Positions 2,938 through 51,900 of a stretch of 64,000 nt of DNA are shown in pieces. The stretch covers positions 11,588,716 to 11,652,715 of the forward strand of contig CP154954.1 of assembly GCA_039621445.1 (NCBI GenBank), given 5' to 3'. Every line of letters begins with the position of its first letter. The first letter of the stretch is position 1. The notes under the pieces are model-generated. The model was not told where the DNA came from, ran no database searches, and saw only the letters and a program-made list of their open reading frames with translations. The DNA comes from Euglena gracilis. Its lineage: Eukaryota. Made by a program: the position numbers and the translations under genes.

Positions 2938-3904
2938 TCACGGCACCACAGCATTCAGCACCACGCTGTCCTCCACGAACGCCTTGATGACCCGCACAGC
3001 CTCCAGCGCCGTGGCGTCTGACAGAGGCGCGATGCGAGAGAGCGATGCGGCACCCCTCACGTAGGCTACCACCCCCGACGCGACCATGCACTCGCCTGGC
3101 CTCGAAAACATTGTACAAAAGTGTGCAAAAATGCGCAGAAATGCACAAAAAAATGCGCAAGAATGCGCACTTTTTGAAAAAAAATGCGCAAAAGGCTCCA
3201 AATTTGAGAGAAAATGTGCAAAAATTATATGAAAATGTACGTAAAACCAATATACAATAATTGTATTTTAATTTTAACCAAACAAAAAATTTTAAAAAAT
3301 TTTTAACCAATTAAATTTTTTTTAAAAAATTTTAACCAATTTACATTGCATGGAATCATGAGGAAAATTTCAATTTCAAAATTCTTTAAAAATTGCAAAA
3401 ATTTGCAAAAGTGGTAAAAAAAAAGCGAAAAATTTGTAACAATCACGAAAAAATGTGTTTCCAAAAGCAAAAAAAAATGTGTTTGAAAAAATTGAATTTT
3501 TTTTGCACAAAAAAACGCAAAAATGCGGAAATATGCGAAACACATCCATCTTTGCTGTCACCAGACAGGCCCACCAGCGTTGCACCCGGACGACTTGTTA
3601 GCAGGCCGGACAATTGCAAGAACCCCAACAGTTTCCCGGGTTGCGTCTCATAGGCATTTCAATGGATTTTGACCCTGTGCACTCTGGGGGATCGTCTACT
3701 GTATTGCGACACAAATAAACACCAGTCGCGGAATGCCACAAAAAACCCACACAATCCTGCTGCGCACAACCAAGAGAACTCACTGACATAAAATGACATA
3801 AAACTGGACACAAACACACACCACATCTACACACCCACCCACCCACACAACACACGCACTGCACATGCAAACGTACACACACACACGCGCGCGCGCGCGC
3901 GCGC

Positions 3905-7900: not shown

Positions 7901-9606
7901 GGCCCTGGCCGGCAGCGACGTGCAGCGTCACGACGTGTGCGTCGGCGGCCACAGCCAGCGGGGAGTGGCGGAAGCCGACTGCCTCCAGGCGGATTTCCTG
8001 TTGTCCCCGGGGGGGGGGGCACCCAGCCTTCTTGTTGAAACCGACCCAGGGTTCCACGCTTTTGTTCTTTTGTCCGAAATCTGGAATGTGCTAATGTTTT
8101 CTGCCACTTTGAGGATGACACAAAATGGAAAAAAATGCAAATTTAAACTTTAATAAAAAAACAGAAAAATAATAATTTAATAAATTTAATAATGTTTTAA
8201 ATTTATTTAAATAATAATAATAAATTTAAAAATAATTTAAATAATAATTTAATAAAAAACTTTAAAACTTTAAAAAACAGAGGAATCTGAAAGGGAAGAG
8301 AGATGAACAGTCGTGTGCCTATGGCGGTACAAATGAGGCACTCCGAGTTCTTTGGGACCCTGGGTGCCGGCTGCAGTCCACCCTGAAACAAGCCGTGCCC
8401 GACAGAATTCTCCGTTGAAGAAACCCAGCGTTGGGGACACGGACAAGCGGTTGGCCATGCATCTCTCTGTTGAGATCTGGACCCCGTCAGCGCCGAGCCC
8501 ATGGACGCCAATCCCCTATGCCTACGAAAGGCAGAGGACGTTCCCCCCTGGCCTTCAACAAAGCAGCCTGGTCCCAAGCTTTGCAGCCGTCTCTGCAGTT
8601 AGAGACCTGGGCAGAGACCGGAATGCAGAATGCAGCCAGCTGTGAGCTGTGAAGTCCGAATGAGCGATGTCCCGCCTCGGCCATTCTCGCAGATCTTTCA
8701 TTCAGGAACTAAAACCAGCCCCCCCCCCCCCAATGCCAAGGAGGGTTGTGGACAAGGCATTTGCCGATTTGGTGACCATGGGGGGAGCTCACGAGCAAAC
8801 AGACGCAATGTCACCCACACAAGTTGTTTTGAGACCTGGGTGGATATCATCTTGACAAAACAAAACCCCAAGGTATGCTGATATTTTCCAAAAAAAAATA
8901 ACTATCAGGTTCCAGTGATGGGCTGTCACCGACGTCTTGTCACCGACGTCTTGTCACCGACGTCTTGTCACTGACGTCTTCTCACCGACGTCTTGTCCAC
9001 CGACGTCTTTTCACCGACGTCTTCATAGATTCACTTAGTTGTTTCCCGGGGGGCACTTTTTTCCTGGGACCCCAACCCACCCACCACTCTTGGAAACACC
9101 CCCAGGGGAGGCTTTAAATGAATCTATGATTGCGAACCCTTATGCCAAGACCTGATGGCGACAATTTCGCATAGGGTTGCTTCTTTGCACTTGTTTGGGC
9201 AAAAAAATTCAGGAAGGGGGGACTGTTGTTGGAGGCTATCAAAAAATGTGGAAATTGGGGGAAGATTGGGAAAATTGACATTGGTTTTGGGCTTTTACTC
9301 CAAATGTGGCGGGAAGCAATGGGAAGCACTCAAGGAAGAATTTCATTATAGAAATATCTTTCATTGGTTAAACAAATCTATCAGCAAAATATACACAGAA
9401 TCTTCCACCGAAGAACTCAGCAATTAATGAATGTAACTGATTGCAACTTCCATCTCAAACCAATGCGGTGGAAGAGAAATGAAGGGAAAAAAGCAGAAGG
9501 AGAAGAAAGATTGTGGATAAAATTGAATTGTGGAAATTTGAAAAACTTGCAGATCTCCCCCCACAAACACATTCACGTGCATATGTGCTGCTGAGATGGA
9601 GCAAGC

Positions 9607-9664
<58 letters not shown>

Positions 9665-12600
9665 GGCCCCAACAGATGACGTTCATCTGCATCAAGAACA
9701 GAGGTCTTTAGATTTTGAAAGGTTTGAATAGCTCCTGTTGACCCTCTTGCCCCCCCCATGGTTTATCAATTCAAAGTGTGGGTCCTCCAGTCGGTTGGTG
9801 GATTTTTGGACAATACATTTTTATCTCAAGAAATCTCAAAAAAAAAAAGGATTAAAAAAAAGGGAATTTTTGCGGGAAGATAAAAGAAGTGAGTGAGTAA
9901 GAACAATTTCAACTGTTTTGACACACAGACACATGGGTAATTTTTCATTTCAAATAATTCACATATTTTAGAAGAGGTTTCTTTTTGAGCCAGCCAGTGA
10001 AACTAGGGACGAATTTCTATGGATATTGGCACACAATCTTAAATTTTGACACGGGCGTCAACGATTGGCAGAAACCATTCACCAACTCAGAAAATCAATT
10101 CAGAAAATCAGCTGGGAATCCTAATGGTTTCACATTTCAATTTCACAACCACCTAAATTTTTATAAGTCCTTTTTCCCTTAGGAATGTACAAACTCAGTG
10201 CATTTTTTGCGCATTTTTTTTGCGCATTTTTGCGCATTTTTTCCGAGGGCCGCCCAGCGCATTCCCCCCCCCTGCACTTTTTTTGGTGCTTATCGCTGTC
10301 TTTCAATATATCTCTTGGTCTGGTGGGAATGACCACATGCCATTTTCCCCGCATCCAACAATGAGCCCAAAATTAAACCAAAATCACCAAAAACAGCTGA
10401 AATGAAGGCATTTTTGGCCAAAAAAAATGCATGAGCAAGGCGTCACTCTCTGTTCACCATAACCAACAATGTCAGCCATGGTGCCTCTTACTTGTGACCA
10501 GGGGAGTAGGATTCGATGCGGGGTCTCTGAAAACCCTAGTGTCCTCATCATCATTGGATGAATACCCACACCTCATCACCCAAAGCTTTTTTCTTGAATA
10601 TGGACAAAATGCCTCCAAAAAGTGTAAAAAAGGTGGGAAAATGGAAAAAAAGCGCAAAAAAATTCTTTAAAAAGGGGCAGAACAGAGCACAAATCAAACA
10701 GCATAACTCAGCGTCAATGCAACATTGGTCAAGGAGCAATTTGATAATATACAATCAAAATCAAAAAAACCAAAATGAAACTGCAACATGTAAAAAAAGC
10801 CGGAAATTCTTAAGATGCAAAAAAAAAAATGCGCGAAAAAATCGAAAAAATGCGCAAAAAATGCGAAAAAATGCGCATTCTCCCAAAAATCCGGAAAATG
10901 CGCAAAAAATGCGCAAAAATGCGAAAAAATGCGAAACGCATCCCCCCCCCCTGAAAAGTGAGATGACTAGGCAAATTTTTACCAAAATATAATTGGGATT
11001 TTTCAAACTACCCCCTCCCCAGTGTGGAACACCCATTCATATGAAACTTTCGACCTCAAAAAAAAAGGCATTTTTGGGCCTGCAAATGCTGGAACAAAGA
11101 AAATTCTAATGTGTGAATGGCAAACATCACCAACGTCACAAAAAACCCTGCCTCCAAGCGCGATGCGGATCACGGCTTGGGCGATGTTTCCACTTCCAAT
11201 CACTCCCAGCGTGCGCCCTGCGTGCGCACAGACGCAGAATCACACCAGGGGATAATTGTTTGTTTTTGAACTCGCATTTCACAGCAAGGACACCAATTGT
11301 TTGTACACCCTGATTTTCTCGGTGGTGCCCAAACCCCAGCTCATAGAATGTGGTGACGGTGTGTGCACACTGGCACGTCCCCGCCCCAGCCCCTGTGGTG
11401 CAAAGTGCTGCGCAAAATTGAGGGCAGTCTAACGATGAGAGCAGCAAAAAATCTATGCCCATGGGCTGGGGGTTGTGCACCACCCACGAAATTAAGAGTG
11501 CACAAATAATGAAAAATGACGTCACATAAAAAACCTTTCTGCCTCATTCAGATGTGATAATGTACGAATGCAATACAAGAGTATTCAAATACAGAACGAC
11601 TGGCTTCATCAAATCCGAAATCGTCGAAAAGAAGAAAACTTAAAAAAACCTAAAATGAACAAAAAGATTGGCCGGATGTTTTGTCGTTTTCTCTGTCTTT
11701 TTATTTTCTTCAAACTTAAGCAAATTTGAAATCAAAATAAATTGGCACAAAAAAGTTTAAAAATATAAGCACAATGCCCTTCGTCATTTTTTGAGAACAA
11801 ACAATATGACCAAAATATGCTCCGACGTCATCCATTGTTGCCACCCGGTTGGAAAAAATTTATTATTCATCGCGGGGGAATTTTGCGATACCCGACAAAC
11901 CAGGAATCACACACACTGACCTGACCGACTGTCATCCTGGCGCACCCCCGGACTGCACACCTGCCAGGCCGAGGGCGGCGGAGTACTTTGCCTTGTCCCA
12001 CCGCCCCTGCCGGCTGTCGGTGACGTTTTCAACGATCCGGCGGCAGGGTTCGCGTTCATGCAGGGGAGATGGAGTGGGGTGGGGGGCACCCCACACCTAA
12101 ACAGCGGCATCGTCAAAAAGATCCATTTCGTGTTCGGCATTTTGTTTAAAAGTGCTTTAAAAGAAGGATGGTTTTGGTGCAAAATTTGGGGGTCCCATGA
12201 ATCGCCCTCCTCCCGGGTCTAGACCAGACATTCATTTAATGTGGTTCACAAAAGACGTGTGAACCACAAAATTTTTTTTGGTGTCCACAGGTGAACCACA
12301 AAAATTTTTTGGTGTCCACAGGTGAACCACAAAAAAATTTTTTGGTGTCCACAAAAAATTTTGTTGCCCACAAAACCTGATTGTGGATCAAAAAAAATAA
12401 CCCCCCCCCAAATAATAAACCCCCCCGGTTTATTATTTGGACACCCGAAGTCAGGGTCCAGGGGGTTTATTATTTGGGGGGGGTTTATTATTTGGGCAAA
12501 AATTTTGAAGTCAAAATTAGACCCGAAAACCCCTCCACAGGCTCCAATGGTCACTTTTTTGGCATTTTTGGGCTTTTTTGAAAACTGGGTGCTTTTTTGG

Positions 12601-15600
12601 CATTTTTTCTGCACCAATTTGATCCATTTTTGTGATTTTTTTTGCAACATTTCTGCTAATTTTTGGTTCTTTTTTTCCTTTGCCCTCACACCTGCCAGAG
12701 GGGGGGTTTATTATTTGGGCGGCCGAAGTCGGTCCTCAGGGGGGGGTTTATTATTTGGGGGGGGGTTTATTATTTGGGGGGGGTTTAAAGTTTTACAACT
12801 AAAAGTGGATTGATCTTAAGACACCTCAGCCAAATTGTGGACCTTTGCTCCGGCTCAATCCGTAAAGTGTGGCGGCGAATCACACCCCCAGGCTTGTATG
12901 GGAATCTCGGAGGAGGGGGGTGGGGGGACCCCCTTCAACCTCCAATCGCCGAATCTTCTCAGTTTACGGGTCAAAAAAAGTCGAAACAATCGAACAAAAG
13001 GGGGCGTGGGGGTATGGAAGGGGGTCGCTGACCTCTTAACCTTTCAAAATTTACTGTAAGTCACCGTAAATTGCAGGTGTGTAATTTGAAAATCATAATT
13101 TCTGCGAAATTTGCAATCCTAGTACCAGGTTTGAACAGTGTTGAGATCTTAATGGGACTTGCACGTAATGGACGGCCGAAAAGACCCCCACCCCCCCCAA
13201 GTTTCGGAAGGGGGGGGCCGCTGCTCTGCGGGGCTTCGCACCGGGTGTGTATTTCGATTTTTTTTTCGAGTGAAAAATTAAAAAAAAAAAATAAAAAAAA
13301 AAAAAAATGGCCCAAAAAATAAAAAAAAAAAAAAAAAAATAAAAAAAAAAAAAAAAATTAGAAAAAAAATGTTTTGTGTCCACATTGAACCAAAAAATTT
13401 TTTGGTCCATAAAACAAAAAAAAAAGAAAAAAAATAAAAAAAACCATTTTCTTAAGGTCAACCACTAAACAAAACAAATAAAGAAAAAAAAAAAATAAAA
13501 ACAAATAAAAACAAGCATTTGTTAAAAAAAAAAAACATAAACCAAACCAGCATAAATAGACACCTTAAAAAACACTCAAAAAAAAAAAAAGCTTTTTTTA
13601 AGGTTTTTTGAGAAAAACAAAAACCAAACTTAAAACAAGAAAATTCGCTCCCAGACACCCCCCAGACCCCCCCCCCCCCTACTTTTACCACGTCTCGGCC
13701 CAAACCCCCCCCTCCCCCCAACCCCCCCTGAACCAAGTCCTCACCCCCCGCGGCCTTTTTCCAACTAAAAACCCCACCCAATTGCCCCCCCCCCCCCCCC
13801 ACAGAACCCGCCACCCCCCCCCCATTTCCCCAATACCTCACCGCCCCACCCACCATCCTCAAATCCACCGCCCAGTAATCCCACCCCCCCCCGAAAAACC
13901 TTTCCCACCACACTTCAAGTAGGAAGGGATTTCGTTTTCACTCCCCTAAAATGCCCTCCCCCCCCCCCTCACCCCATAACCCCCCGGTCCCCCCCTCAAC
14001 CCATTGTGACCCACCACCCGCTCCAATACACCCCCCCACCCTTTCCCCGTTATTCCCCCGTTGAAACTTCCCACCCACCTCGGGAAGCACCCCACCCCCA
14101 AACCCATGCCCATAATTGCGCCCAGTCGCAAGCAGGAAAGCACACCCCAAACCCACCCCCCCCCCCCACCCCCCCCCCACCGTCTGACCCCCCCCCCCCC
14201 CCCACCTATCAAAAGAGCCCCGCCAGCCCCTCCGCCCCCCCTAAACCCTCTCCCCCCCCTCTGCCTCACTTCCTAACCCCGTGCCTGCCTGCCCCACCTC
14301 GCGCACCCCCACCCCCCACCCCAGGTGCTATGTTCTTGACCCCCCACCCCGCCATCCCCCCCCCCACCCATCCTCCAACCCCACCCACCCCCCCCGCCCC
14401 GCCCATTCACTCCGCCCGCCCCCCCAAAACCTACCCACCCCCAATCCCCCCACTGCCCGTGCTTATGCTTCACTTTTTTGCACTTCCGGTTTTTTCCTGC
14501 TCCCCCATTTTTTTTTTTTTCTTCCAACTCTCTTCTGCTTCACAAACAGTTCTTCTGGGTCCCGCGGAAACACTAGTGAAAAAAAATGGACGATTTTTTT
14601 TTCGGATAGACCGTTTTCACCCAAAAATTGCATGAATATCAAAACAGTCAACTGTACAAAATTGGCCCAAATTGCCGACAAATAGCACGTAACGTCGGGG
14701 CTGGGGGCGGGGAGTGTTGCAAATCAAAATACCCTTAGATGGGGCTTCAAAGTGCTTCAATTCAGGTCTCCGGACGTTTCCTTTGACTCCCCACCATTTT
14801 CGAAAAATTTCAGAAAACTCGATTTTTTGACCCAAATGTTTTGTGTCCACATATGAACCACAAAAAATTTTTTGTGTCCACAGGTGAACCACAAAAAATT
14901 TTTTGGTGTCCATACGCGAACCACAAAAAAATTTTTGGTGTCCACAGTGAACCACAAAATGACAATCTTGGTGTACCACACTAAATGAATGTCTGGTCCA
15001 GACCAGGCATTCTTCCTTTAAGGCGCCTTAAAACACCATAAAAATTTTTTCGGGCAAAAAGAAATCACAAAATATGGCAAAAGCAAGCCAACTCCGGGGG
15101 AGAGGATTTTTGGCTTCGCTGAAGCATTGTTTATCAACCAAAAAAAATTGTTTATGTTTTGAACTTTTTTGATTTTCAACCTGAACCAACTTTGGTTCGA
15201 TGCCAGCATGGTTTTTTGAGTGCTCTTGGAAAAATAGACACCTTAAAAAATACTCAAAAGTTCTCAAAATTGCGTTAAAAAAGCTTTTTTTAAGTTTTTG
15301 AAAAACCCTTTAAAAAGCTTGGGAAACCTTAAAACTTTTTTGAAGAAAATTCGCCCTAAAAATGCCTGGCCCAGACCCTCCACAGTGAAGAGCCGGTACT
15401 TTAGAAAACCCTGTCCGGCGGTCAAGGGCGATCATGAGGCCGATTGTGAGCTCCGCCACCGCTGGCAATGACGGAAAGCCAGACACACACCTTTCCAACC
15501 GTTTGTCGTCCCCCCGGGTTGACAACCTTTTCGGGAAGCAAACCGTGCTTCATCCAACCCGGGATGCTGCCACCTGATTGCGCTTGCTGCAGCAGAATGC

Positions 15601-29373: not shown

Positions 29374-32300
29374 TCAGTCCGCGCCCGCCTGCGGGACCGG
29401 GCTGAGCACGCGCAGGCCTTGGTCCAGCGTGACCACCATGGCAAAGGGGAACACGTCGGGCTGCTGACACAGGTCGATGTCCCCGTGGGGAGAGGGAGTG
29501 GCTCCTTGCCTCCCGGTTTCTTTTCTCTCGTTCAATCTTAATTTCAATAACCCCCCCCCCAAAATTAGACCCCCCCATAAAATGGACCCCCCAAAAATAA
29601 GACGCCCCCCTGGCCGGTCCGAGCAAAAATCCATGAAATGGACCCCCCCCATAAATAAGACCCCCCCCTGCCAGCGCGAAGCGCCGGATTTTTGAAAAAT
29701 AGGACATTTTGGGGGGGGAATCTGCCCAGGGTTCGATATAAGGAGGGGGGGGTGGTCCGGACCCCCCGTAGATATAGGGCGGGGGGGGGGTCCGGACCCC
29801 CCCCTGCGGGCCAGGAGGGGGGGGACACCCCCCCACCTAAACAGTGGCGCGGTCAGGGTGACCGATTTTCGGCCCGGCGCGAAACGCCGGGCCGAAAAAT
29901 TTTGACCCCCCAAAACGACCAAAAGTGCCATTTTGGGCACTTTTTGGGCAAAAATTGGCCAAAAATGCAAAAAAATTTCGGCGCGAAGCGCCGGAGGAAA
30001 AAATTGACCCTTTTTTGGGGGGGGGTCCCGGGAACCCCCTGAGGGTCGGTCCGGACCCCCCTTGCAGGTGGGGGGGGTGGTCCGGACCCCCCCCTGCGGG
30101 CCAGGAGGGGGGGGGGTGGGGGGGACACCCCCCCACCTAAACCATGTACGCCCTCCTTATATCGAACCCTGAATCTGCCATTGGGACAGTTTTCACACAA
30201 TTCAGCATATTTTCTCATATTGTCTGGCGCGAAGTGCCGAATTTTTCGAAAATTGGTATTTTGGGGGGCATTTTTGGACATTTTGGGGGGGCCGAAAATT
30301 TTTCCAGCAAAATCCATAAAATGCCCCCCCCCCCATGAATAAGACCCCCCCTCGGGCTTTCCAGCAACCGACCCATGAAATGGACCCCCGGTCTTATTTT
30401 GGGGGGGGGGGGTTACGCTTATTTGTTTGCTTTGATTATTTTTATCATTTTTGGTCGTATCGTTCCATTGGTATCGCTTTGTGCGAGTCGTGCAATTTAT
30501 CCCTCCTTCAGTGAAAGCATGCAGAGAGGCTCAGCTGAGATGTAGAAAATGCAAACTATGGGAAGTGATTCAACTTCGAGGTCCCTCTGCCCCTAGATTC
30601 TTGATTACAAAATTATTCGATTATATTGACCCCAGGGGATCGGGGTTTCAGAGTGCCCTGGTGTTTCTGCCAGACAGATACCCCCCGGAAGTCAATGCCT
30701 GCCTGATTGTGGCCGTTTCTGGGCTTTCGGAGCCTTCGACACCGGAGTGCCTTGCCAAATGCCCCGGCACTTTTGAAGACGTGCCCTATCTCCCCCCGAT
30801 CCAGGTGCCTCGGGGTGCCTGCCAGGCAGACACCTCCCCCCCCTCAATGCAGGGCCAGCTCCACCTTAAAATTTGGCCTGGGTTTGGAATCGGGTGCAGC
30901 GGCGAAGCCCGCTCCCTCGGCCGAAGTTGGGCCGCAAGTCGTCCGGGATCGCCTGGCCGCTGACTGCCATGTAGTCCGGCCGCCACGTCAGGAAGTCCCG
31001 CACGTCTGCCGGCTGTCCCACCCAGGGCATCGCCTGACGAACCCCGCCCCCCCCCCCCCCGGCTGGCCACGTTTGGTCCACCCCCCCCCCTGCCCCGCCA
31101 CCCAAACGGCTGGCTGTGACTGACCCGGCCTCGCCCACCGGCTAGCCAGCCCTGGCCGGATGGGTCGATGTGGAGCAGGGGAACTTGAACCTGAACTTGA
31201 AATTTGAAATCAATTTCAAATTTCGAATTTAAAATTCAATTTGAGAAAAATTCTTGCACACTCAAATCTTTTTGAGAACATGTGCGGCGATGGCCTTGCC
31301 CCCGCAGGAGGGCGGCGAGGAACTCGGCGCAGGCAGGCGGGGCCCCCTGCCCCATGCTGGGGCACGAAACGGCGCGAGAGGCGGGGCTGTGTTCGGCGGG
31401 CGGGACGACCGCGTACCGTTTGAAAGCCACTTTCTGTGTTGGGCAGGAATGCCTGCCACGCACCTCGCCTTGCTGGCCGGGGTCTTTCAAGAGGAAGAAA
31501 CGTCCCAGGCGGACGGAACAAAAGCAACACAAAAAGCAAAAAAAAATCGGCCAAAACCACTGAGAGGATTCGAGGCGTTTTTGGGGTATAAATTTGTCGA
31601 CGAGACAGAGACCGAAACAATGTTTCGATTGGTGGCGTTGCAGTGATAGTGAAATAGCAAAATACGCCACTAAGGATGTCTACAGATGCGGACCAAACAC
31701 AGGACACACACGCAATAGAACAAATACACATACAACATACAACACACAAACACACACACTCACACACACACAAGACAAATAGAATATATGCTCAATTGAA
31801 TTGAAGCAAGGGCCCCAGCACGATCCTCGATGCCCAGGCGGGGGTCTGACGCAGAGCACCGCGAGCTAAAAATACAAAAAAAAGCAAAGTGTGTGCTCAT
31901 GTTCGTCTTCAAACTGGACTGCCTTTTTGCCAACGTTGCCCAGGAGAAATAGCCTCCCATGAAAGCTGTTTTTTTACCAACCCCGGGGGGGAGGGGGAGG
32001 GAGGAGAAATAGCCGGGGGGAGGGGGGTCCGGAGAGCCTGTGAGGGAGGCAGGCACATTCCTTTGAAAATAGGCCATTTTTGGCTCCCCGGCGCCTTCGG
32101 CGCCGGGGTTGTGCTCGGGCACTTTTGGCTGTGTGCCATACCCCCCCCCCCCCGGGGGTCGGATTTGGAGTGCCTTGGAGTGCCTGCCCAGGCAGGCCCC
32201 CCCCCCCCCCGGGGTGGGGTCAGCACCCGACTAAAATACGGCCTGCTCCCATGACTGACCCCCCCCCCGCAGGAAATTGTAACCTGACAGATTGGCCGGT

Positions 32301-35300
32301 ACCGGGGACCCTGACAATTTCCCGGGCAGGACCCTGACAGGTTCTCGGGCATGACAGTATTTGGCATCGGACCAACATTTTGGGCGGTTAGCTTGGAGAG
32401 AGCCCTATGGTGCCCTGGGGGCCGTCAAGCTTCACCCCCGTCATCACCATCGAGACAGACACTGGCTCGGGGACATGCCACCGCTCACCGCGGTGCACCT
32501 CGATTCCCAATTCACACAGACCAGACATCCATTTAATGTGGTTCACAAAAGGCGTGTGAACCACAACATTTTTTTTGGGTGTTCACAGATGAACCACAAA
32601 AAATTTCGTGGTGTACACAAATGAGCGGCAGCCTTCCTTTTGGTGTCCACAAATCCCGCAAAAAAAACTTTGGCGTCCACAAAAATTTTGATCTCCAGAA
32701 GACTTGATTCAGAATCATAAAAAATTAAGCAATTTTAAAACTAAAAGTGGACTGATCTGTTGATACTTTAGACAACAAAGCGGCCACTCTGGTAGGGCGG
32801 ACACTTTGGGAGTCAAATTTTGCCTTTGGCGCCTTTTGGGTCAAAAGAAATAGCCACGTTGAGGGTAAACCAAAGTTTGCAACGCTACTGCCTGCGTTCA
32901 GGGCGGGACAGGGATCAATGGGAAGGACTGGTGGCAGAGCCACCCTCACTTGGTTGCCTGGGGGGAGTCTGGCATGCCTGCCTCTGTGCTCGCTTACTTG
33001 TCAGGTTACAGTTTCCCACGGGGAGGCGGGGGGGCTTTTGTTGTGTAACAGGTCCCTGAGGTGACAGGTCATAGAGTACGGGGTTTAGGTGACAGTTTCC
33101 CGGGAGGGGGTAGGAACCACAGAAATTTGGGTTCACAACGGCTCCAAAAGTACAGTTTCAAGTTTGTGGTTATGAATCAAAAGCCCAAAAAATGAGCGGA
33201 CGTGGCGGAGGAGACCTCCGTGCATCATCCACAGGGCGGCCGGAATTCCCATGTCTCCCGGGAATCGATAGGGGCGGACCCGGCAGTCACCCGAAAAGGG
33301 GGTAGGTCGAAACAGGCCAGCTGGCGCTGAGCGTCGGGTGGTGGGCTCTACTGATTGGCTGGGTTCAACAAAGCTTCCATTCAATGCAGGGTGGTCCTTA
33401 ACAGGGCGCTGCTTGACGACCCCCAGGTGGGAGTTTTCTTCATTGAACTTTTATTTCACAGGTGGGCGTTATTATTCTTCACTTTATGTTCAATTTTAAA
33501 TCCTTTAAAGTTCATTTTCTTTAATTGCCATTTCATTTTTCATATTTTTTGGGGTACCCCATCCCGGAAACTGTGGGGTCCTACTCAGAGCACGGCCAGG
33601 CACAGTAGCCCAGCAGTGGCAGTGGCCGGACGAGGCGGCCGCGTACTGCAACACGTGGCGCGCGGTGGCGGTGGCGACGGCGAACGAGGCGGTCAGCAGC
33701 AGCGCTGCGCCGGCCGCCCGGACGACGCCCTGCGTGCCCGCCGTCGTGCGCTGGATCGGCCCCGCCCCACCGCCCACTGCAAGGGCTGCCCGACCCCCTT
33801 TTTTGATTTGTGAAGAACTTGGTCATTGATGTTTTTGATTTAACTTTATTTTGATTTTTGACTTTTTTCCATTTTATTTTTATTTAAATTTATTTATTAG
33901 CTATTACTTGCAAGTTGTTTAAATTTATTTAAGCAATTTTAAGTTATTTTAAGTCAGTTTAAATTAAGTTAATTCAATTATTTCAATATTTTTTTAAGTC
34001 TCATTTTTCATTTTTCTGCTCTTTTTGATCCGGGGGGGGGGGGCTGGGGCATTCCCAACCCCAGCAACCCGTTGGGGCGTGCAAGAGCTTTGGAGGCACA
34101 CTCTTCGGATTTACTTTGGGATCCCAAAGAAATCGTGCCGAAGGAAAAACACAACCCCTTCCCGACGGTGGCATTCAGCAGGGGGGTGGGATGCGGACCG
34201 CAGAATTTGCTGTTTTCGGGACAATTAGAAAAAAAAGGCCCAGAAAAGCATTCAAAACAGTTGCCTTTTGTTTCGGGTCTCCACAAGGACCGGTCCCCAA
34301 AGGGAGAGGAAGAGCCCAACCCATGTCACCAGGGTCAACAAACAAACAAGGAAGTTCTCCAGTGCAGCAGGAAACAGAAACTGATGAACTGCAGAGCCTT
34401 TCACAGGTTTGACTGGCGGTTGCTGATGGCTGGCATTTGCCATCTTAGATACCTGCTCCAAGTGTTGCAGCGTCCAGCGTGCAATTGCATCGGGGCATTG
34501 TGCTTTACTTGCAAAGAGACAGCGACTACACAAAGACATGCGAACGGTTCCTGGCGAACAGCCGAGACGTTTAACCGGGACACGCACGTGCCACCCCACG
34601 GTGATTCCGTGATTCCGAATACCCGAAAGTGGCACGGCATTATCACTCGGGCCATTCATGTACGTACACATGTGACCCGTCGCGCGCCTGACGTCGCCCG
34701 GCGCGGGCGACGGGTTTGCGGGCGGCGGGGCGCCAGTGTGCAGCCCCGCAGGTTGGCCGCCTTGACCTGCACCGGCGAGTTCCAGAGGTCGAAAGTGGCA
34801 ACCGGGAGGCCGCCGACGAGTCGCACGGCACCGTTTGCATCGGCTCACACAGGCACCAGGAGTGGGGGGGGGGGGCTGGAGGGCAGTCACCTGTGGTCCG
34901 CCCTGGTCGGCTGGAGGGTGCAAACAAAAAATTGCCTCAACCTGTCTAAGTACCGGAAATGATGGGTCTGAAAGTGGGTACCCCCCTATGTCCAACAACT
35001 GGTTACCTCTGTCCTCCGACTGAGGGGGGGGGGTCGTTGGACATAGGGGGTCGTTGGGCATCAGGGGGGGGTAAGAAGTGGGGGGTGCTTAATTTTCCAA
35101 AATATGGGTAAGAACCAGGAGGTGTTGCAGAAAAAGGGAGGTCATTTGACTGCAAAAAAATGAGGCGCGAAATTCTTTTGGGGTCCACTGTTGGACTTAC
35201 AGGCATTTGGACGCAAAAATCAGGTAGACGTTTTTAAAATTTCAAAATTTCTGAAAAAAAAACATGCAAAATAAGTCTCCGCGAGAAGATGATTGTTGAA

Positions 35301-40562: not shown

Positions 40563-42509
40563 CCTTTTTTGGGATAAATGGAGGTCTGCGGGGATTATTT
40601 GTGGAGACATATGGCCAAGGTATCCAAATGCCATGGAGACCCGATAATCTGGTGACCATTGAGTATGACTGAATACCCCCCATATTGGCCACACCACGAC
40701 GCTGACAATTTCCCAGGCAAGACGTCGGCAAATTCTCAGGCATGATAACGGAGGTAGGTTTGCCAAGCAGAGAAGGATTTTCAATTTCAAAAAATAACTT
40801 TGGGGGTAAAAAACAAGCAAAACAGGGGGGTCAACAAAAAAAAGGGGGTACATCTTCTTCCAAGAAGGTGGGCCTACCCAAATCACGTTCCCAGGTACGC
40901 AAGGAGCTTAAGAAAAACTCTCCGATGTTCGCAGGGAAAGAGCGGAGACAAGATGGGAAGAGCGAATGGGAATGGGGAGGAAACATTTCACAAGCAGCGT
41001 GCGAGAAGTTTCAGGCACACCAGCGCACGTGTTGTGCTTGCTTGTCTAATTGCAAGCAATTTACTGGGGAAAAAACACTGGACCTAACAGTAATCCAATC
41101 CAGGACACAGGGAACAAGACGCCAACTTCTCAAGCAGGAAGGGAGTTGGTGGCACGTGTGATACCACCTTCAAAAAGCAAAACTATTTTAAACCTTTCTC
41201 TGAAATGTGCTTTGTGAATAACCAACACTTATTAAAAAAAGACACACACACACACACACATCAATTAAAAGTTTTCTTAACTCACACTTGCAACCCAATT
41301 TTTCTTATATATCAATCGGTCCGACAACTGTCTTTATTCACCCAAATTGCCACCAAACGAGAATGTTTCAGGACAATGTTTCCCCCATTTTCTACGCTGC
41401 CTGCGCGGCCGCTCTCAGTCTGTTGGCGTTGGCAATTCAAGAGAGCAAAGGGGCTGTAATTGGTCGCAAAGCAAAGTCCCCGGGAGGTTTAATCTTTCGT
41501 TGGCAAACGGCTGCAAAAATGTACTGAAAAAACATGTCAATTTTGGTCCCTGGAGTACGCTGCCAAATAAACGCCGTCCAAAAAAATCAGAACGGAGGGA
41601 AACAGTGGAGGGTCCCACCCAACTACGACAACAGGGTGTTCATATTGGGGGGGGGGGTATGCGCAACATGTGCCGGGGCTGTCGGAGCAAATTGAAGTGA
41701 GAAGAGGAAGCGTCGCAGAAAGAATTCCTAACAGTTACACAATATGGAGTACAATGCGGCTTAAGCGACCGCCATTAAGAGGAAGGCAGGCTGCTGTCTT
41801 CTGCCTCAGTCAACATAATGCGGACTGACAAACAGAGTGAATCTCGGAGGTTCTTTCAACAAATAGAAGGACGCGGCCTACCGCGGCCCAACCAAACTGC
41901 AAACAACGATTACAAAGTGAGTTAGACTTAAGGTTCACCGGCAAAAAGTTGAGCCCATCCCCCTCATTGTTGTCATGATGTCCGCTGCAGGGTGCTCCTG
42001 GAACCCATAACAGCAGCCCAACTAGGGTTAAAAAACATGGGGGACTGGAGGAAGGCCCTGAAGGCGCCGACCAAGGGTCCCCATGTGTATTAACCCTAAT
42101 TGGCCAGTTGGGTGGCTATTTAGCTTGCCAGTGCTCTGCCGGGCCAATGCATGCAACTTTGCGAAGCAGTTGTGGTTTGGGTCACTGAAATTGTTGTGGT
42201 TGGGCGGCCGCGGCCGGCCACGGCCCTTCCAAAAAAAGGTTGGCTGCTGCCCAACCTCCTGTGAACCTCCCTGCCTTGACTGACCACCCCTAAAATTGTC
42301 ATATGTTGCTACACTGCTTCCATATAAGACATCGAAGAAAAACACAAAGTTCCCAAAATATAAAATATAATATATAAACAGACGAACACAAGAACACATC
42401 CCAAAATTTGGCCAAGGGTTGTGGTCCCCCCCCCGGGGTCCGGCCCTGGATCACCCACCCCACCTTTCCGGTGGTCTTCTGAGTTAAAAAAAGAAAAAAG
42501 AAGCCGTCC

Positions 42510-42946: not shown

Positions 42947-45900
42947 CACACGCACGCACGCACGCACAGGCACCACACCAAGTCTCCACAAATATGCAAA
43001 TACATTAAAAATGTAACGTCAATTTTTGTGCATTTTGAGGGAACAGGCCGCAACAAAATATAAAAATATACTCGAGTTTTTTTTGTAACTTTGGGAACGT
43101 GCTGAGCGTTAAAAAAAACATTTGCATTGGCAGAAAAAAAAACAATGAAAATTATACAAAAAAAATTGATGGAAAGTTCGTCTCAGGCGGAATCGGGTCC
43201 CAAGCACGTCACTGTCCTCAATCGGAGACATTTCCCAGCAGAAATAAACACCAAACACACCAAAAAAAAATATTCAAAGAAATTTAAACACAATGAAAAT
43301 CAAAAAAAAAGAGCATCCCCTCTCTCAGGGAAACAAGGGCCATTTTACGGGTAGATATCAGATTATGCTATTGCTCGACAACAAAAAAGAAAACAACATT
43401 GGAATTCCCCTCTTTACAGAGGCCTCAGCCATGGCAGCCCTGCTCTCCGTCTGCTGGGTAGCCCAATCCACCGTCCCCCCCCCCCCCCGAGCGCAGGCCA
43501 AATCGAGAGTCTCTGGGCCAGCGTCTGTTGCAGGAGGGGGCCATCAGTGCCATGGTTGGGGTCAGCCCAAGGGTCCAGGCGTCCTGACTGACAGCCAGCG
43601 TGGCGCAAACTTGCGTAGTGTCCTGGTCTGCCGAGTTGCGCACACTTGTGTTTAATTGTGCAACGACTTAAATGTAAAATTGGTCCAAAAAAAGTGATTG
43701 TGCAATTCACAATGGATGTCGGGTAGAAGAGCAATTTCCCTGTGCATTATTGATCACATTTAAAAACAATTGCAAAAAAATTGCAAGGCAAAGAAAGCCT
43801 CAAAAATGACCCTTTCCCAAAAATGCCATTCTGCAAAAATGCGATTCTGCATATCCAAAAAATATTGAGATTACATCCCCCAGAGGTGTTTGGGAAGGTG
43901 GAGGCCCACCCCGTAGATGGCTGCCAAGGAAAAGTTCCTTCAGCGCCGAAGAGAAAATTTGACCCAAAAATCGGCGCCCCCGGAGATGCGGGAAGGCCTG
44001 TCGACTCCCACCCACAGGATGTCCCACAACAAGAAGTCCCACACAGCCCTGCTCCTTGGGGTCCCGGCCTCCGGCTGCACGGGGACATGGAAGTGCGCGC
44101 ACAGCTCCTTCGCCGCCCGCTGCCGCACGGGCATGGCCAGCGGGGCCAGCAGAGCCGCCAGCCCGGACTTCAGCAGGCGGTGGTGGGCGTGGAGGTCCGC
44201 GGCGCTGATGCGGCCCTGCGCGATGAGCGGGTGGTGCTCGGGGGCAGGCAGCCAGGCAACATGGAAGAACAATTGTGTGCATGGCAAGTCTGGAAGCCCG
44301 GTGTCTGATACTCCCGCACATATTGTTATTGTTGTTATATTGTTATTATTGTAAAGGTATGCGGAAGGCACACATATGCACATTGCCACAATTATATCCT
44401 GTGTTTTTTTACCAGAATTTTTAGGCACCCGTTTTGTTGGAATTATTGGGCCATTGGCTCGTCAGGAGGACGCTGTCCACGACATAAGAAAGGAGCGTGG
44501 TGCCCTCGCCCCCAAAACCACGGAGCAGCCTGGGCGGCGAAATCCCCACTCGACCCCAAGGAGGTCGGGTGGCCAGTGGGGGCCACAGTGGGCCGGTGCC
44601 TGCCATGCCGGCCGGCCGGCGGTGGGGCCTCTTCGAAGATGGAAGCGCTTTGAGGGAGCCCCACGCGATGATTTCCCCGGAACATGAGTTCGGATTTCGG
44701 TGTGCGGCGGGCGTGGGAGGTGGCGTGTTGATGCGGGTGTGTTGGTTTGCTTCATCGGCGAGCGGTCCTTTTTGGTTTTGGTCCGGCGGGGTTTACCCAA
44801 GCTATATTCCCGTTTGAAAAATGCACAATTTGGGGTCGTTGTCGCCGAGGGGGGATTTTTAACCCAACCCAACCAAATGTGGGCCGGCCATTTCCTCGCC
44901 CTCATTTTCTAGCAGGCTCCGGGCCGGGGATGTGCTATAGCCTGAACCCGACCATCCCCAGGGGATTGAAATTGCCCTACCCAGGGGGGGGGAGAACTTC
45001 CTTAAAAAGAAGAAACCATGATGGGGGCAAACCACACTTCAGAAGGACAAACCAGAATACCTCGAATAAGACCTTTTTTTAACATCAATGTTCAACCTTT
45101 AATTCGTTTTATTTTATTTTTTTGGCCCCTAATAAATGCTTGGTGTGCACTTTTTAGGAACGAAAATTCGGCCCCTCGGGGGCGTGCCTTCATTAAGACG
45201 GTAACACAAACTGCCTAAAATGGCTTAAGTTGGTCCAAAGATGGGCCGGATTGCCCAAAATCAGACAAAACTTAGGGAGGAAATTCGAAATTTTTGATGG
45301 GGATGCAAATATATTAGGGGGGTTTGCACAATTAGGGCGGAAGCACACTTATTGCGGGCGGGGTTTAAAAATCAATCAATACCTTCCTGGCCGACCCTCA
45401 ATTTCCTCTTCGGCTCCTTGAAACTGGGTGCGCACTTAATAGGGATGTTCTTTTAACGAAATCAGAGAAGTCCTCATTACTTGCCTGCCACCCACCGCAA
45501 CACTCCACCCAACAAATTCCCCCCACCCAATAGTCGCCCACCCGTCCGACGGGCGGGTCCTCAAAAGACCAAAAAAAAAAACCCATGACAAGAAAAAACA
45601 TGACTCTGGCAACAAAGGCAAGCCCCAGCCGTCGCGGTGGAGCCGGTGCGCTCCGACAACGCCGCCTCGCGGTCGTCCAGGCGGTCGACACGCAGCGGGG
45701 GGAACTGCCGCTTGGCCAACGGGCCGCCCGCAGGCCCCTCCCCCCCCCCCCTCTGCAGGAGGGCTGGGGTGGGTGGGTTCGGACGTAGTGCGTGATCACG
45801 GGGCACAGTTTGGTGGAAGCAAGCACCTATGATGGATTCCGAATTTTAGTCCGCGGTCGGCTGCGGTCGGCTGCGGTCGGCCGCGGTCGGCCGCGGTCGG

Positions 45901-48900
45901 CCGCGGTCGGCATGAATTTACATGGCAGCCCACTCTTGTATTTAGACCACGGTGAGCCCCTCATATGGTACCACAAGAAAACAGCAGCGACAGTGGCAAC
46001 CAAAGAATCGGTGGCGTCCCACCACTGGTCAGGCGCTAATGGCATAAAGCCGCCGATTCACATACACAAAGAGGAGGGCATCAAGGGTGCCATTGGTCAT
46101 ATTGAGACGGTCGTCTGTTTGGATAACATATCCTGGTACTTTGCAACAAACCATTGGAACCGTTGAAGGCAAAGCAGCCTCCCATCCTTTGTCAAACCAG
46201 TCCTTTCTGGCAGACTTGCACCAGGACAACCCTTTAAGAGGACCACATTAGCCAGGAAATCTAAAAAATCCGGGGTAAGAATATGAGTAATTTTATCCTC
46301 AACAAAGAAATTGACATCAATTCGGAAAAAGTTGCGCGGTCGGCGGCGGTCGGCTGCGGCCGGCTGCGGTCGGCATAGGTGCTTGGTTGGAAGATCGAAT
46401 AGACGGTCTGTGGGTTGGGTTGGGTTGGGTTGGGTTGGGTTGGGGAGGGTTGGGTCGGACCACCCCCGAGCATTGATGTGCTTAGTGTGTAGCGCAACGC
46501 AACGTCACTGGGATTGCTTATTGTCACATCAATGAGATAAAGTATTGTTTTGGGCATACAAATGGGGGCAGGAAAAATGCTGCTTCACAAATGATACACA
46601 AAATTGTTGACCGTGAGACACGAGGGCAAAATGATACCTTTTAAATGAAAACGCGGAATGATCTATTGGGACTGTGGCCATGGCCTTCGCCCCAGCTTTG
46701 TCCATCACGCTGGCCTACCCAAAGACAAGACCTGGGGCTTGTTTATTGGGTCCATTGCTGGTAACTACTCTCATTTTGGGAGGCTTTCTTTTTAGTCCCC
46801 GGATTCCAAAAAATCCCAAGAGCCATGCGAAGGTTGGTTGGACCCTCTTGCTGCTGCAACACACGACAGTCGAGGTGATGTGCCCAAGTGTGAACAGACA
46901 GCTCGAACAGCTCCAATGGAAAATGGAAAGAGTTGGCGACCGATCCAGATTGAGAGGGGAGATTCCTGGTCCTCTGGCAGCACTTGGTACAGCCGGAGGG
47001 GTTCCGTTAGGCCCCGGAGGGGTTGCAGCGATGGCAGGCTGCTGTCAGGACCCCCATGGGGAGAAGGCACTGTACAATAATTACCCCCCCAGGGACTGTG
47101 ACCTGCCAGGTCAGCAAATACACAGATAGGAGACAGGGCACTATAATGACAGGTCAGCGAGTACGGAGGTACCTGACAGTTTCCTGGAGGTTTCCTGGGG
47201 GGGGGGTAAATTCATGTCCGAATGCAGAATAGCAAACGAGCAGACTACCTACCCCCCCCCCCCGGGAAACTGTCACCTGACAGGTTGGCCAGTACCGAGG
47301 ACCCTGACAACTTCCTATACTGACAGGTTGGCCAGTACCGGTTACCCTGACAGTTTCCCAGGCGGGACCCTGACAGGTTCTCGAGCATGACAGTTTCCCA
47401 GGAGGGGTAGGTATGGGGTGCCAGCTTCCAACCGGCTGGGCTTAAAAGCCCACCACCCCACTGGAAACCCCCCCTTTCTCCAACAGCATCCTTTAGCGGC
47501 TGAAGTCACAGTGCACACCACCGCAGAGGCATTTGGGCACACCCTCTGTCCCCGGATAACTCCGCATGCGTGGAGCCATCACGACCGCTTTCCGGGTCAA
47601 ATGTGGCAACCGGGGGGGGGGGCAGCTTCTTCCAGTGGGGGGTTTTTCATCAATGGAGTTCTAAAAGGTCTCGGGGGGAGGTTCGGCAGGTTGGCTACGA
47701 GCTTTAAAGAATGGGCTGGCTGACTGCAGCCCCCTCCCGGGGGTGGGTCCCTTTCGGGTTACGCGGGCGGAGGGGCCCAATTTGGGGGGGCAGCCCGCCT
47801 GGCCCCGAGGTCGGCCCACACCGCCCCAGGACAGTGGCCGCCCAGCGCCTCGAACACCGCCGCCGACACCGCGGTCTGCCCGCCGTGGCACACGGACTCG
47901 ATGCGCGCCGCGGCGTTGACGACCGGGCCGTAGTAGTCGCCGCCATACCACGGCTTATGGCGCATGGGGGGGGGAGGTCACTTCCCACTTTCAAAAAACC
48001 AGTCAGTCCTTTTCAAAAACCAGCCTCCTTCTCCGTCATGTCAGGCACAGGGACCTGGCGGCTCTGCCGGGGAGGTGCCTTTGCCGCTTTCCGCGGGGGG
48101 GGGGGGCACGTTAGGCATCAGCCTGAAGCTGAACTGCACATTTTGGCTCGCGGAGAAGGCATGAGTTTGGTTGCTGAAATGAGATCAAATCACAGTTTTT
48201 CATTTCAAATTTGAATTGTTAAAAATGTGGTGATTCTTCTTCTGCAATTATTCTTCTTTTTTGTTGGGTGACTTGATCAGCCTGAACACCTTTCCTCCCC
48301 CTGCTCCGTGCGGGGGGGGGGGTCGGTCACTCTGGCCACTTGGGGCCGGAATGGCTCGATTTCCGGAGTTTGGGCAAAGGCCAAGGAAATTCTCCAGCAC
48401 CTTCGGCGCTGGGTGGCCACTTTCAGCCATTCCTGGCCAACCCCCCTGGGGGGGGGGGTCCGAAGACAAAAACCCGTCAGTCACTCCAAAAAAACCCAGT
48501 CACTAACCCCCTGGGGTTGGGCGCATCTCAAGCAATGGTGTGTCCATAGCCCCGTGACACCGGGTCCAGCTTGATGTCAGGCCACTCGGGCCCCATCCCA
48601 AACCCACACAGGTGGCAAAGCCGGCAGTCATCGACCGGTGGACAACAAACAGTCTGTGTGGGCCTCCAATGTGGACAGGGTTTGATATAAGGGCGGGTGG
48701 GGGGTCAGACCACCCCCAGTCCAGCAGGGGGGGGGGGACCCTCCTGTACAGTGGCGCAGTCTGGGTGACGAAAACTCAGCACGGTGCACCCAAAAATCCG
48801 CCCCCAAAAAATCGGCCAAAAATTTCATTTTGGGCACTTTTTGGGTAAAATTTGGCAAAAATGTCAAAAATTTTCAGCGCGAAGCACCGGAAGGGGAAAA

Positions 48901-51900
48901 AATGACCTTTCGGGGGGGGGGGTCCAGTACACCCGCCCCCTGGCAGGTGTGGGGTGGTCTGGTCCCCCCTCCGGGCCGTGGAGGAGTTAGCCCGTACACC
49001 CTCCTTGTATCGAACCCTGTGGCTCACAAAAATTGCAACGTACTCTTCTGTTTACATGAGTGGTGCGGTACACAAAGCGCAAAAAGGGAGAGCCTCAAGC
49101 AGAGCAGGAGACAAATCACGGAACTGTCTGCCAATAAGATTTTCTGCTTGAATGCAATGTCCAAACTGTTTGTGTTCTGAAAAAAATATTTTATTTCTTG
49201 GCATCTGCAATGCTGGCTAATAGCTGGGTTTCTTGGGGAACCATTAAAAAAAAGTATTAAAAAATACAAATGCATGAATCCATGCACGAATCCATTAATG
49301 CATGAATTATTGCTGTTGGGTTGTAAGTTCCACTTCAGGCAGATAAATGCAACAGCATTTTAGATCATACTCGACATAACCTATCTGCAACATTCCCATT
49401 GGATTAATTCAAGAAAAATAACCCCCCAATATAAAGCCCCCCAGTTTTATATTTGGACGGGACTTCAAGACCCTCAGGGGGGAGGAATTATATTTGGGCG
49501 GTAAAATCAAACTTGTTCGGTGGCCTCTATGACCTTCGGCGGCCTTCAATTGTGGCCAAATACCAATTTTATGCCAAATTTTTGTTGTGTACCTCCTGCT
49601 TTTCCAAAAAATGTGCAATTGTTATCCAAGCATTTCTGGTGAAAAAAAATGTTGTATCAACCCGATTTTTCAACTTTTCATTGAAGGGAACCACCGTATG
49701 GCTCCACATCAGGAGGGGGCTTTACATTGGGGGGGTTTTAATTGAAGTACTGCCATGCTAGGCTGGGTTGCCAATAACCTGAAGTTCGGCAGGCATGGTG
49801 ACAACATGGTGACAACCTTAGGTATAATGGCCTTGGGTTGGGGAAATATATTTGTGGGTGGGTGGGTCATCCACATTGGACTGGAGTCTGAATGGGAATA
49901 TCACCGTTTTGGCACCAAGAAAGAGCCCGGATGCCACATCCATAATGGATACCAGTGCGGACCCTCGACGCCAGGAGGTGGATTTTGTGGGGGGAGGTAC
50001 GAAATGGACAAAACGGGGATGAAAAAAGCCAGAACAGCGCCATTTTAATGAGGACTTTGTTTTCTCCTGCTACTTTGACGGCATCACCTTTCGGTGATTT
50101 GAGGGAAATTTCCCATGTGACTTGCTCCTCCCCTGGGCAATTGTCGAACAAGCAATCTGGCGAGCGCAATGGGGGAGCGACAATTTGGGGGGGGGGGTGA
50201 CAATTGGAGCAGCACAGAATGGTTTGGAAATGCCCACGGACAGTGATTGCACAGGGGAGACAACTGGAGGGCAAATCTGGCCATCTGGAAAATTCTGTTT
50301 TATGCGGCAATTTAGAGTCCAAGTCAACCAGAATACAAAATATCAAAAAAATGAGAACTAATGAGAAAAAATGAGAATGGGATATAAAAGGGGGTAGCCA
50401 CAAGAGGGGGGACAATCGCCGGCAGGGATGCAGGTACCCAGAGACTGCTCTCCACCTCCCCCCGTCTGACCAAACTGTATTTGTAGTACCTTCACCCCCC
50501 CCAAAACAATCAAATTAATTTTCGGAGGTTTTGATGAGTAAAGAAAATTTAGACAGACTATTCAGCAGGTGAGAACTTGATTCACAAACGGGGTCACAAA
50601 TTCCCAGAAGGAATAAGAGTAGATGTTGACAGAAAAAACAATTCCAGACATACATGGCAGCAGCACTCTACATGGCCCCTTGGGCCATGTAGAGTGATTG
50701 GGGGGGGGGGGGGGCTTCGTATGGAGTGATCCGCACCCGACCTTCTGGATTTTCGGTCTGTTTTGCCCAGGAACCGCGTTGGATCCTGGCAACCAGCGGC
50801 AGATTCGGGAGGGTCGGCACTTATTTTTAGGAGTAGAGTTAGGGTTAACAAACACCAGAGGGGATATAGCAAAGTGTAGGATAGGTGAACGGAAGACTTC
50901 TCTTGGTAACGTTGTTTGTGAAACTGGGTAACCATTGCACATCGGTGCAACAGCCACGCTGCATTAGAATCTTAAAGATTGTATTTCTATTGCGCGGTGG
51001 CGCAATGTACCTCTTAAATTTGCATTCTACATAAGCATGCCATTGCGCAGATGCCCAATGAAAACACATGTTAACATATATTGTTATTATTGTGCAAGTG
51101 CACAATGATCACCCACATGGAGAATTACAAAAAAATGTGTCGATGTGCAATGTTTTTCATTTGTGGGAATTAAAATGATTGTTGCGCCATGGCATCCCCT
51201 CGCCCTGCACGACGGAGTCCCCTCGCTTCATCACCCAGCGCTTTGGGTTCATGCACACTGGGCCTTGGCAGCCCTGTGCCTTCAGACCGTTCCAAGTCGT
51301 TGCTTTCGCCCCCAGGCCCTGGGGGTGGAGGGTCACATTGATTCGAACTGTCCCGAACCTCGGGGCTCTGTGTTCGAACGCAGAACTTTTTTGCAAGATT
51401 GCGCGTCGGCTCAATCTTCCAGTCACTTTCAAAGCTAAGTGCGACTTAGGCAGCCCTGCCAAACGAAGATCCAATGATTTCCCTATCCCCTGTGGGATAT
51501 TTCTTTTTGAAGGAATTGCAACCATATGTGGTGTAAGCAAATGCCAAACTGTGGGAATTTAATGGATCAGGAATGCCTTTGTGAATCAAAAGCATTCTTG
51601 ATCCACCATTTCGAGATTTTTAAAAGGTCGGTGTTTTGCCGAGCAGGATTTTTTTTTAACTCAAAAAAAATCGTGCGCCGAAAATGGACCCGTTTTTGGG
51701 ACCACATCAGGCCGGAAGTTAGGTGCCATTTTTGGAAGATTTTGGAAAAACAAATTTGCCTCAAAAATGCCACTGAGTTACGTCGAAATTCAAAATTAGG
51801 TCAAATTCCACCCAAACTCGCCCGGGATGCAGCCAAAATTCCCAATAACTTTCGAAAATGGGGGCCCAACAGGACGCCGGTCGCAACCCTAACCTTATCC

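Follow-up and report, generated by a model that had tools for sequence, protein, structure and literature searches.

A non-conventional intron with a probable transposon insertion footprint in a phosphoglycerate dehydrogenase gene of Euglena gracilis

The non-conventional introns of euglenids are the closest described system to the structure reported here, a 3370-bp insert at positions 12044-15413 in a gene for D-3-phosphoglycerate dehydrogenase (PGDH) within a 64,000-nucleotide stretch of the Euglena gracilis genome (contig CP154954.1, positions 11,588,716 to 11,652,715 of the forward strand; in the following, the window). An origin of these introns from miniature transposable elements with inverted repeats (MITEs) was proposed in 2014 (PMC3935182), and a 2024 review draws the CAG and CTG motifs as terminal inverted repeats (TIRs) and the junction repeats as resembling target-site duplications (PMC11282704). 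Intron 4 of gapC in E. agilis (ACOI 323) is strain-specific, new and flanked by eight-nucleotide direct repeats, which Milanowski et al. 2016 attributed to double-strand-break repair (PMC4770533). In the splicing code given by Nomura et al. 2025, a 3-nt spacer is followed by CAG, an inner pairing, CTG and a second spacer of 5 nt, after which the exon has to open with a purine. The spacers of 3 and 5 nt were defined genetically, introns of both natural and synthetic make were spliced after knock-in into an exon, and 84.4 % of the introns of E. agilis are 'slidable' owing to direct repeats; the origin of the introns is still called unclear by these authors (PMC12501133). A sequence-only reading of the window had presented the PGDH insert as a direct, young example of a hAT-type insertion that became an intron. 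Its novelty was overstated: the MITE origin, the labelling as TIR and target-site duplication, the 8-nt repeat at a new intron, the spacers of 3 and 5 nt and the exon knock-in are all published. In the literature searched, supplements not covered, we found neither the statement that both spacers add up to the length duplicated by a (hAT-like) family with 8-bp duplications nor a description of a hAT element in euglenids. The locus is a further example of the published hypothesis, adding a testable quantitative link and a provisional superfamily assignment.

The PGDH gene consists of many short exons on the minus strand from about 17219 to 2938, located by tblastn with the proteins P0001, P0002, P0003 and P0005. 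One exon is split by the insert, which on the minus strand starts with CAGGGTT and ends with AACCCTG. A perfect 8-bp direct repeat, CCGCCGGA, flanks it with copies at 15414-15421 and 12036-12043, and the minus strand reads ...GAC CGCC|GGA-CAGGGTTTTCTAAAG...(3370 bp)...GCGAACCCTG-CCGCC|GGATCGTT. Inverted termini and duplication were thus found as the sequence-only reading had given them. The octamer is present three times in the 64 kb, the sole extra site being 44782-44789. The insert is composite: two nested elements, A and B, lie within a core of about 210 bp. In the order of transcription the features are:

15415-15465, minus strand: upstream PGDH exon, ending in AVAELTIGLMIALDRR; 94-100 % identity over 16-17 aa to P0001, P0002, P0003 and P0005 (tblastn), with a GT-AG intron before the exon
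15414-15421, minus strand: upstream repeat copy CCGCCGGA; with the junction set by the code, CCGCC belongs to the exon and GGA forms the 3-nt spacer
15407-15413, minus strand: 5' TIR CAGGGTT, with CAG at +4..+6
15377-15406, minus strand: rest of the 5' part of the core element, delimited by subtraction of element B and its duplication
15369-15376, no strand: right duplication copy of element B, GCCCAGAC on the plus strand (sequence reading)
15004-15368, no strand: nested element B, 365 bp; TIR CAGGCATT with 8 perfect bases (10/14); flanking 8-mers GTCCAGAC/GCCCAGAC, 7/8
14996-15003, no strand: 8-mer GTCCAGAC, the duplication copy common to A and B
12225-14995, no strand: nested element A, 2771 bp; TIR CAGACATTCATTTA, 14/14; flanking 8-mers GTCTAGAC/GTCCAGAC, 7/8
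12217-12224, no strand: left duplication copy of element A, GTCTAGAC (sequence reading)
12051-12216, minus strand: 3' part of the core element, holding a block weakly similar to the family of the MITE at 29727
12044-12050, minus strand: 3' TIR AACCCTG, with CTG at -8..-6
12036-12043, minus strand: downstream repeat copy CCGCCGGA; CCGCC is the 5-nt spacer and the exon begins with GGA
11959-12042, minus strand: downstream PGDH exon, RRIVENVTDSRQGRWDKAKYSAALGLAG (tblastn and border reading)

The junction is determined by protein homology. The exon with the end ...AVAELTIGLMIALDRR stops at 15415 and the exon RRIVENVTDSRQGRW... restarts at 12042; the two pieces align to residues 100-115 and 114-147 of P0005, with the duplicated RR alone as overlap, and P0005 has AVAELTIGLMIALDRRIVENV ungapped. 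The RR appears in both blast segments because CCGCCGGA stands on both sides of the insert. Excision of the insert with one repeat copy yields a string of 21 residues identical to a bacterial homologue. With the joined reading of 42 aa, 248 of 384 candidate proteins match at E<=1e-3; among the 120 matches listed, identity is 67-79 % and coverage 100 % save for a few (95 %). A protein identical to the joined reading was not among the candidates, the best match being 79 % identical. The element and 8 nt would thus be removed from the transcript with exact restoration of the frame, as the sequence-only reading had proposed and as the ungapped alignment to the homologue indicates.

The ends GGA-CAG-GGTT...AACC-CTG-CCGCC|G match the published code 5'-N3CDG-/-CH'GN5-6|R, and the sum 3+5=8 is in line with the experimentally defined spacers in Nomura et al. 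2025 (PMC12501133). After the CCGCC spacer the downstream exon opens with GGA, so that it begins with a purine. Inside CAG/CTG, GGTT pairs with AACC, giving a perfect stem of 7 bp where pairing of at least about 4 bp is called for. None of the nine equivalent junction positions offers GT/GC-AG borders (CC..TG, CG..GC, GC..CC, CC..CG, CG..GC, GG..CC, GA..CG, AC..GG, CA..GA). Eight intronic positions in the two copies of CCGCCGGA are free of code constraint, and all are unchanged. A folded mini-construct of both intron ends formed the terminal stem with an energy no better than that of shuffled sequences (z -0.76) and was not used.

The combination of inverted termini and flanking repeat is not random. 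The window holds 573 CAG-started 7-bp inverted pairs 40-6000 bp apart, and an exact, non-low-complexity 8-bp flanking repeat accompanies five of them: three independent loci (1759-2051, 12044-15413 and 29727-30171) and two artefacts in a tandem array at 55.4-56.0 kb (55375). Such structures averaged 0.017 per window across 300 shuffles that preserved the dinucleotides, five of these shuffles having one, compared to the three independent ones observed. Since the junction is fixed independently by protein homology, a coincidence is still less likely. A census anchored on CAG/CTG alone was too noisy and was rejected (an exact 8-mer repeat at 8 pairs, where a rough estimate gives about 2-3). The array itself (55294-56015; periods 18, 27, 45 and 104) is complex, gives false matches for TIRs and target-site duplications, and lies within an open frame of 288 aa at 55211-56077 on the plus strand that has no Pfam family.

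Elements of the same end geometry are present elsewhere in the window, as the sequence-only reading had stated for CAG...CTG elements with 8-bp duplications; 1759-2051 and 29727-30171 bear this out with 8/8 each. The putatively free elements, which the sequence-only reading took to be non-intronic, are:

29727-30171, no strand: MITE of 445 bp; TIR CAGGGTTCGATATAAGGAGG, 20/20; duplication AATCTGCC, 8/8
1759-2051, no strand: MITE of 293 bp; TIR CAGGCTTCTTTTTAAG, 18/20; duplication GAGTTGAT, 8/8
53872-54343, no strand: MITE of 472 bp; TIR CATACATCTCTTTAAGG, 16/20, CAT-started; duplication GTCTTTAT, 8/8

The element at 53872-54343 is outside the CDG splicing code because it starts with CAT. An older relative of the 29727 MITE at 48676-49019 (73 % identity over 262 nt) has kept its termini and has no duplication. 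Together with the family of element A, the 29727 family is one of two element families repeated within the window. The sequence CAGGGTTCG is indeed common to the intron end and the 29727 element. A second resemblance had been drawn to a MITE end at 58784-58799: CAGGGGTTTTCTTAAG is present there, without a partner within 8 kb (best 13/20), and is an orphan end rather than a demonstrated MITE. When all 2196 CAG-started 22-mers were ranked by likeness to the intron termini, the orphan end at 58799 and the MITE end at 49019 were among the best; the ranking was not accepted as evidence for clustering because the scores were low and tied with unrelated sites.

Elements A and B are of the same type. 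Three near-identical 8-mers, GTCTAGAC, GTCCAGAC and GCCCAGAC, divide the intron core, A and B (12217-15376). The middle 8-mer is common to A and B, thus the same 8-bp target was hit twice. In element A, subterminal tandem repeats with a unit of 31 nt stand inverted to each other at 12259-12353 and 14834-14959, and the middle of the element is rich in G/C and A/T homopolymers, e.g., about 800 bp of nearly pure G runs on the minus strand (13650-14450) and about 300 bp of T/A runs (13270-13560). Similar G/C-run hairpins (ACCCCCGGGGGGG) adjoin the TIRs of the 1759 and 53872 MITEs. A partial second copy of A is located at 32522-32653 (83 % identity over 135 nt). The segment 32522-32725 appears as a left-end fragment of the A family, having the TIR with one mismatch, the same subterminal repeats and ...ACACAGAC just before; no convincing right end was found for it, and a TIR match with two mismatches at 40575-40588 has an unrelated interior.

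We propose, with a probability of roughly 0.7, that 12044-15413 is a non-conventional intron born by insertion of a CAG...CTG cut-and-paste transposon, later enlarged, and removed together with 8 nt. A non-autonomous DNA transposon of about 210 bp with CAG...CTG termini would have inserted into the PGDH exon and duplicated its 8-bp target CCGCCGGA. The non-conventional splicing machinery would recognise the terminal stem and cut at a distance of 3 nt upstream of CAG at one end and of 5 nt downstream of CTG at the other. As the RNA would lose the element and exactly 8 nt, the coding sequence from before the insertion would be restored, and the insertion into an exon may have been tolerated from the outset. 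A and B, with CAG ends and 8-bp duplications as well, would have landed in the intron later and brought it to 3.4 kb.

Several results weigh against this proposal. The TIR is perfect for 7 bp only; 11/20 positions agree over the first 20 nt, which past position 7 is chance level. Neither the core nor element B has a further copy in the window (blastn, E<=1e-3). The heptamer CAGGGTT is not enriched, with 15 occurrences against 16.3 expected; eight of these, however, mark the two ends of four convergent pairs, namely the intron 12044-15413, a second PGDH intron at 8047-11150 and two MITE copies. A clustering of the intron termini with MITE TIRs, another part of the sequence-only reading, was not recovered beyond 7-9 nt and one weak internal block. 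The core has 9 terminal nt and this block in common with the 29727 family, the likeness being one short stretch rich in G/C runs (E 0.007; local score 38 versus a shuffle maximum of 28, for mononucleotide shuffles only), and between both PGDH introns only the termini of 7-9 nt are in common within the window. The footprint is found at one of three non-conventional PGDH introns, because the other two have no flanking repeat (2/8 each). The age of the intron is relative: the unchanged intronic positions of the two CCGCCGGA copies stand against two later insertions that have accumulated in 12044-15413, one of them with a decayed duplication. With the short TIR and the core lacking a second copy in the window, the view as a direct, young example is not established. 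Finally, no transposase domain or Pfam family was detected in the 20 scanned of the 114 open reading frames (ORFs) of at least 130 aa in the window, and CCGCCGGA (TCCGGCGG on the other strand) misses the target preference nTnnnnAn of the hAT element Hermes, its second base being C and its seventh G.

These last two points concern the superfamily. Subterminal repeats are typical of Ac/Ds-type hAT elements, and YARNG is the consensus of hAT TIR ends. The sequence GTNCAGAC, which we took to be the Hermes target consensus, was not confirmed in the literature searched and was not used; nTnnnnAn was used instead. The 8-bp duplication and the short TIR with a 5' CA end at 12044-15413 are two traits of hAT elements. 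Hermes generates 8-bp duplications, has 5' CA ends and prefers targets of the form nTnnnnAn (PMC3030943). The agreement with this preference is mixed. The target of the nested elements, G[T/C]C[T/C]AGAC, fits it, GTC[T/C]AGAC and GTCTTTAT (53872) fit fully, GAGTTGAT (1759) fits at position 7 only, and AATCTGCC (29727) at neither position. A target that was used twice and fits nTnnnnAn suggests a strong insertion hot spot. In view of the 8-bp duplications, the short CA-started TIRs and the subterminal repeats, hAT-like appears to be the best label for these elements, although an unproven one; the firm hAT assignment of the sequence-only reading is not established, since no transposase was found in the ORFs scanned and the target preference is mixed.

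An origin from another superfamily that duplicates 8 bp, i.e., Merlin, P or another, is unlikely, and among the alternatives it survives best. Two Merlin families with 8-bp duplications occur in E. gracilis (PMC8101967), no hAT transposase was met in the ORFs scanned, and nTnnnnAn agrees with GTCTAGAC/GTCCAGAC and GTCTTTAT, not with GAGTTGAT, AATCTGCC and CCGCCGGA. However, Merlin TIRs measure 24-462 bp, have a conserved terminal 5'-GG and are accompanied by a duplication of 8-9 bp (PMC8101967), so only the duplication length fits; the termini observed here are CAG or CAT and abut the duplication directly. The 5' CA ends with 8-bp duplications follow the Hermes/hAT pattern (PMC3030943), and the subterminal repeats of element A point in the same direction.

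The proposed transposon insertion has also to be compared with double-strand-break repair in which a staggered break took up filler DNA, the explanation given for the eight-nucleotide repeats of gapC by Milanowski et al. 2016 (PMC4770533). The 8-nt repeat would then be the filled-in overhang, and the stem would be present only since DNA without a stem was not spliced and was lost. The missing second copy of the core in the window and the short TIR are compatible with such an event. A repeat length fixed at 8 is not expected from break repair, however, and the window contains elements with CAG ends, exact 8-bp duplications, long TIRs (20/20 and 18/20) and repeated family members; long TIRs and family members of the same geometry argue for transposition of those elements, and two such elements landed within 12044-15413 itself. 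We consider break repair improbable. A coincidental repeat, or a region without a functional intron (a pseudogene or an assembly join), is very improbable. In favour of this view, the many homopolymer runs of the interior make assembly difficult; against it, a perfect 8-mer at both borders of a homology-fixed junction would arise by chance at about 4^-8 for each position, and the remaining PGDH exons are intact and in order across 14 kb with borders that are GT-AG or conform to the code.

A wider interpretation of the transposon insertion can be given tentatively, with slightly less than even confidence. The 3+5 geometry of splicing might mirror the 8-bp staggered cut of a resident CAG-ended, hAT-like family, and each exon insertion with a purine at target base 6 would be a precisely removable intron. 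Such elements might be the chief source of the non-conventional introns (roughly 70 %) in Euglena genomes; 'slidable' introns would be young with an intact duplication and 'non-slidable' ones old. The machinery may have co-evolved with the family or may derive from the recognition of transposon ends.

The rest of the gene contains conventional and non-conventional introns. Border reading gave five GT-AG introns, at roughly 17138-16318, 16223-15465, 11959-11221, 5444-4189 and 4067-3015; at least three introns have no GT-AG borders. The feature already mentioned is:

8047-11150, minus strand: second non-conventional PGDH intron; ends CAGGGTT...AACCCTG as in 12044-15413; flanking 8-mers 2/8

Its 5' end, CAGGGTTTT, resembles the 5' end of the intron 12044-15413. 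For this intron the 3+5 rule yields ALGFQQEGW, compared to ALGMQVVAW in the homologue. A direct repeat, TGGAGGCAG, at its 5' end and in the exon at about 7985 was rejected as the junction, as a join there breaks the frame. The exon pieces GFQQEGW and EIRLEAVGF are separated by 25 nt (7998-8022) that read GT...AG and include 11 consecutive C; this is either a very short intron or a place where the assembly has a homopolymer of the wrong length; the predicted protein would fall about 7 residues short of its homologues at this position. At 2938-3015 the PGDH frame stops at about residue 320 of the roughly 400 aa of the homologues, ahead of the ACT domain, and more downstream exons are possible. 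The PGDH exons match bacterial-type dehydrogenases best, the highest identity being 79 % over 42 aa. Metagenome contigs were searched for an orthologous locus or an empty site with the exon of 52 aa as query, which gave 597 pattern-matching stretches, 144 relatives and 80 kept; no euglenid orthologue was among them, and the best of the 80 had 74 % identity on a contig of 105 kb.

Around 20 orphan termini of the form CAGG-N-TTTAAGG(A)CC are distributed across the window, most without a recognisable partner, e.g., at 57401(-), 17001(-), 15721(-), 15683(-), 5065(+), 46222(+), 30880(-) and 25130(-). The terminus at 57401 is identical to the TIR of the 1759 MITE over 16 nt. Two of these termini are arranged in tandem within the conventional intron that immediately precedes the exon at 15465. 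At 59584-62272, a convergent pair, CAGGGTTT...AAACCCTG (2689 bp apart, flanks 3/8), could be a further non-conventional intron or an old element.

The insert at 12044-15413 is a real, non-random structure, a non-conventional intron in which the footprint of a transposon insertion is intact, with many sister elements in the same window. It bears on the origin of the euglenid non-conventional introns and on the reason for their 3+5 spacing by pairing an intron of intact footprint with free and nested transposons of the same end geometry. The MITE hypothesis thereby gains a quantitative prediction: the repeat length of young introns should peak at exactly 8, with sliding from -5 to +3 around the code-defined junction. 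Intron ends should furthermore cluster with elements that have 8-bp duplications. Both can be tested on the published set of about 466,000 non-conventional introns of E. agilis. If true, Euglena would be a case in which non-spliceosomal removal makes a transposon family harmless in exons, which would account for the large number of such introns.

Compared with the euglenid non-conventional introns described by Nomura et al. 2025 and Milanowski et al. 2014/2016, the PGDH intron is not different in kind. It shares with them the lack of GT-AG borders, CAG at +4..+6, CTG at -8..-6, four more paired bases, a purine as first base in the exon and repeats that make the junction 'slidable'; it has in addition a full 8-nt repeat and two nested transposons, and is known from sequence alone. 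With intron 4 of E. agilis gapC it has the flanking 8-nt direct repeats in common, which were taken there as a sign of recent gain. Break repair was proposed for gapC, whereas the sister elements with 8-bp duplications near the PGDH intron favour transposition; for gapC intron 4, a presence/absence polymorphism has been described. Non-autonomous hAT elements (Ac/Ds, Hermes, hobo) are alike in the 8-bp duplication, the short CA-started TIRs, the subterminal repeats (element A) and the nTnnnnAn targets of the nested elements, whereas the target CCGCCGGA of 12044-15413 deviates from this motif. The introners of Micromonas, Aureococcus and dinoflagellates are similar in that a transposon footprint supplies exact removal and exon insertions are tolerated (PMC11282704). 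Introners form multi-copy intron families, whereas the two PGDH introns of the window have only termini of 7-9 nt in common. Their removal is spliceosomal, with GT/AG coming partly from the duplication (PMC11282704), whereas here the non-spliceosomal system of euglenids would measure 3 and 5 nt from the TIR stem.

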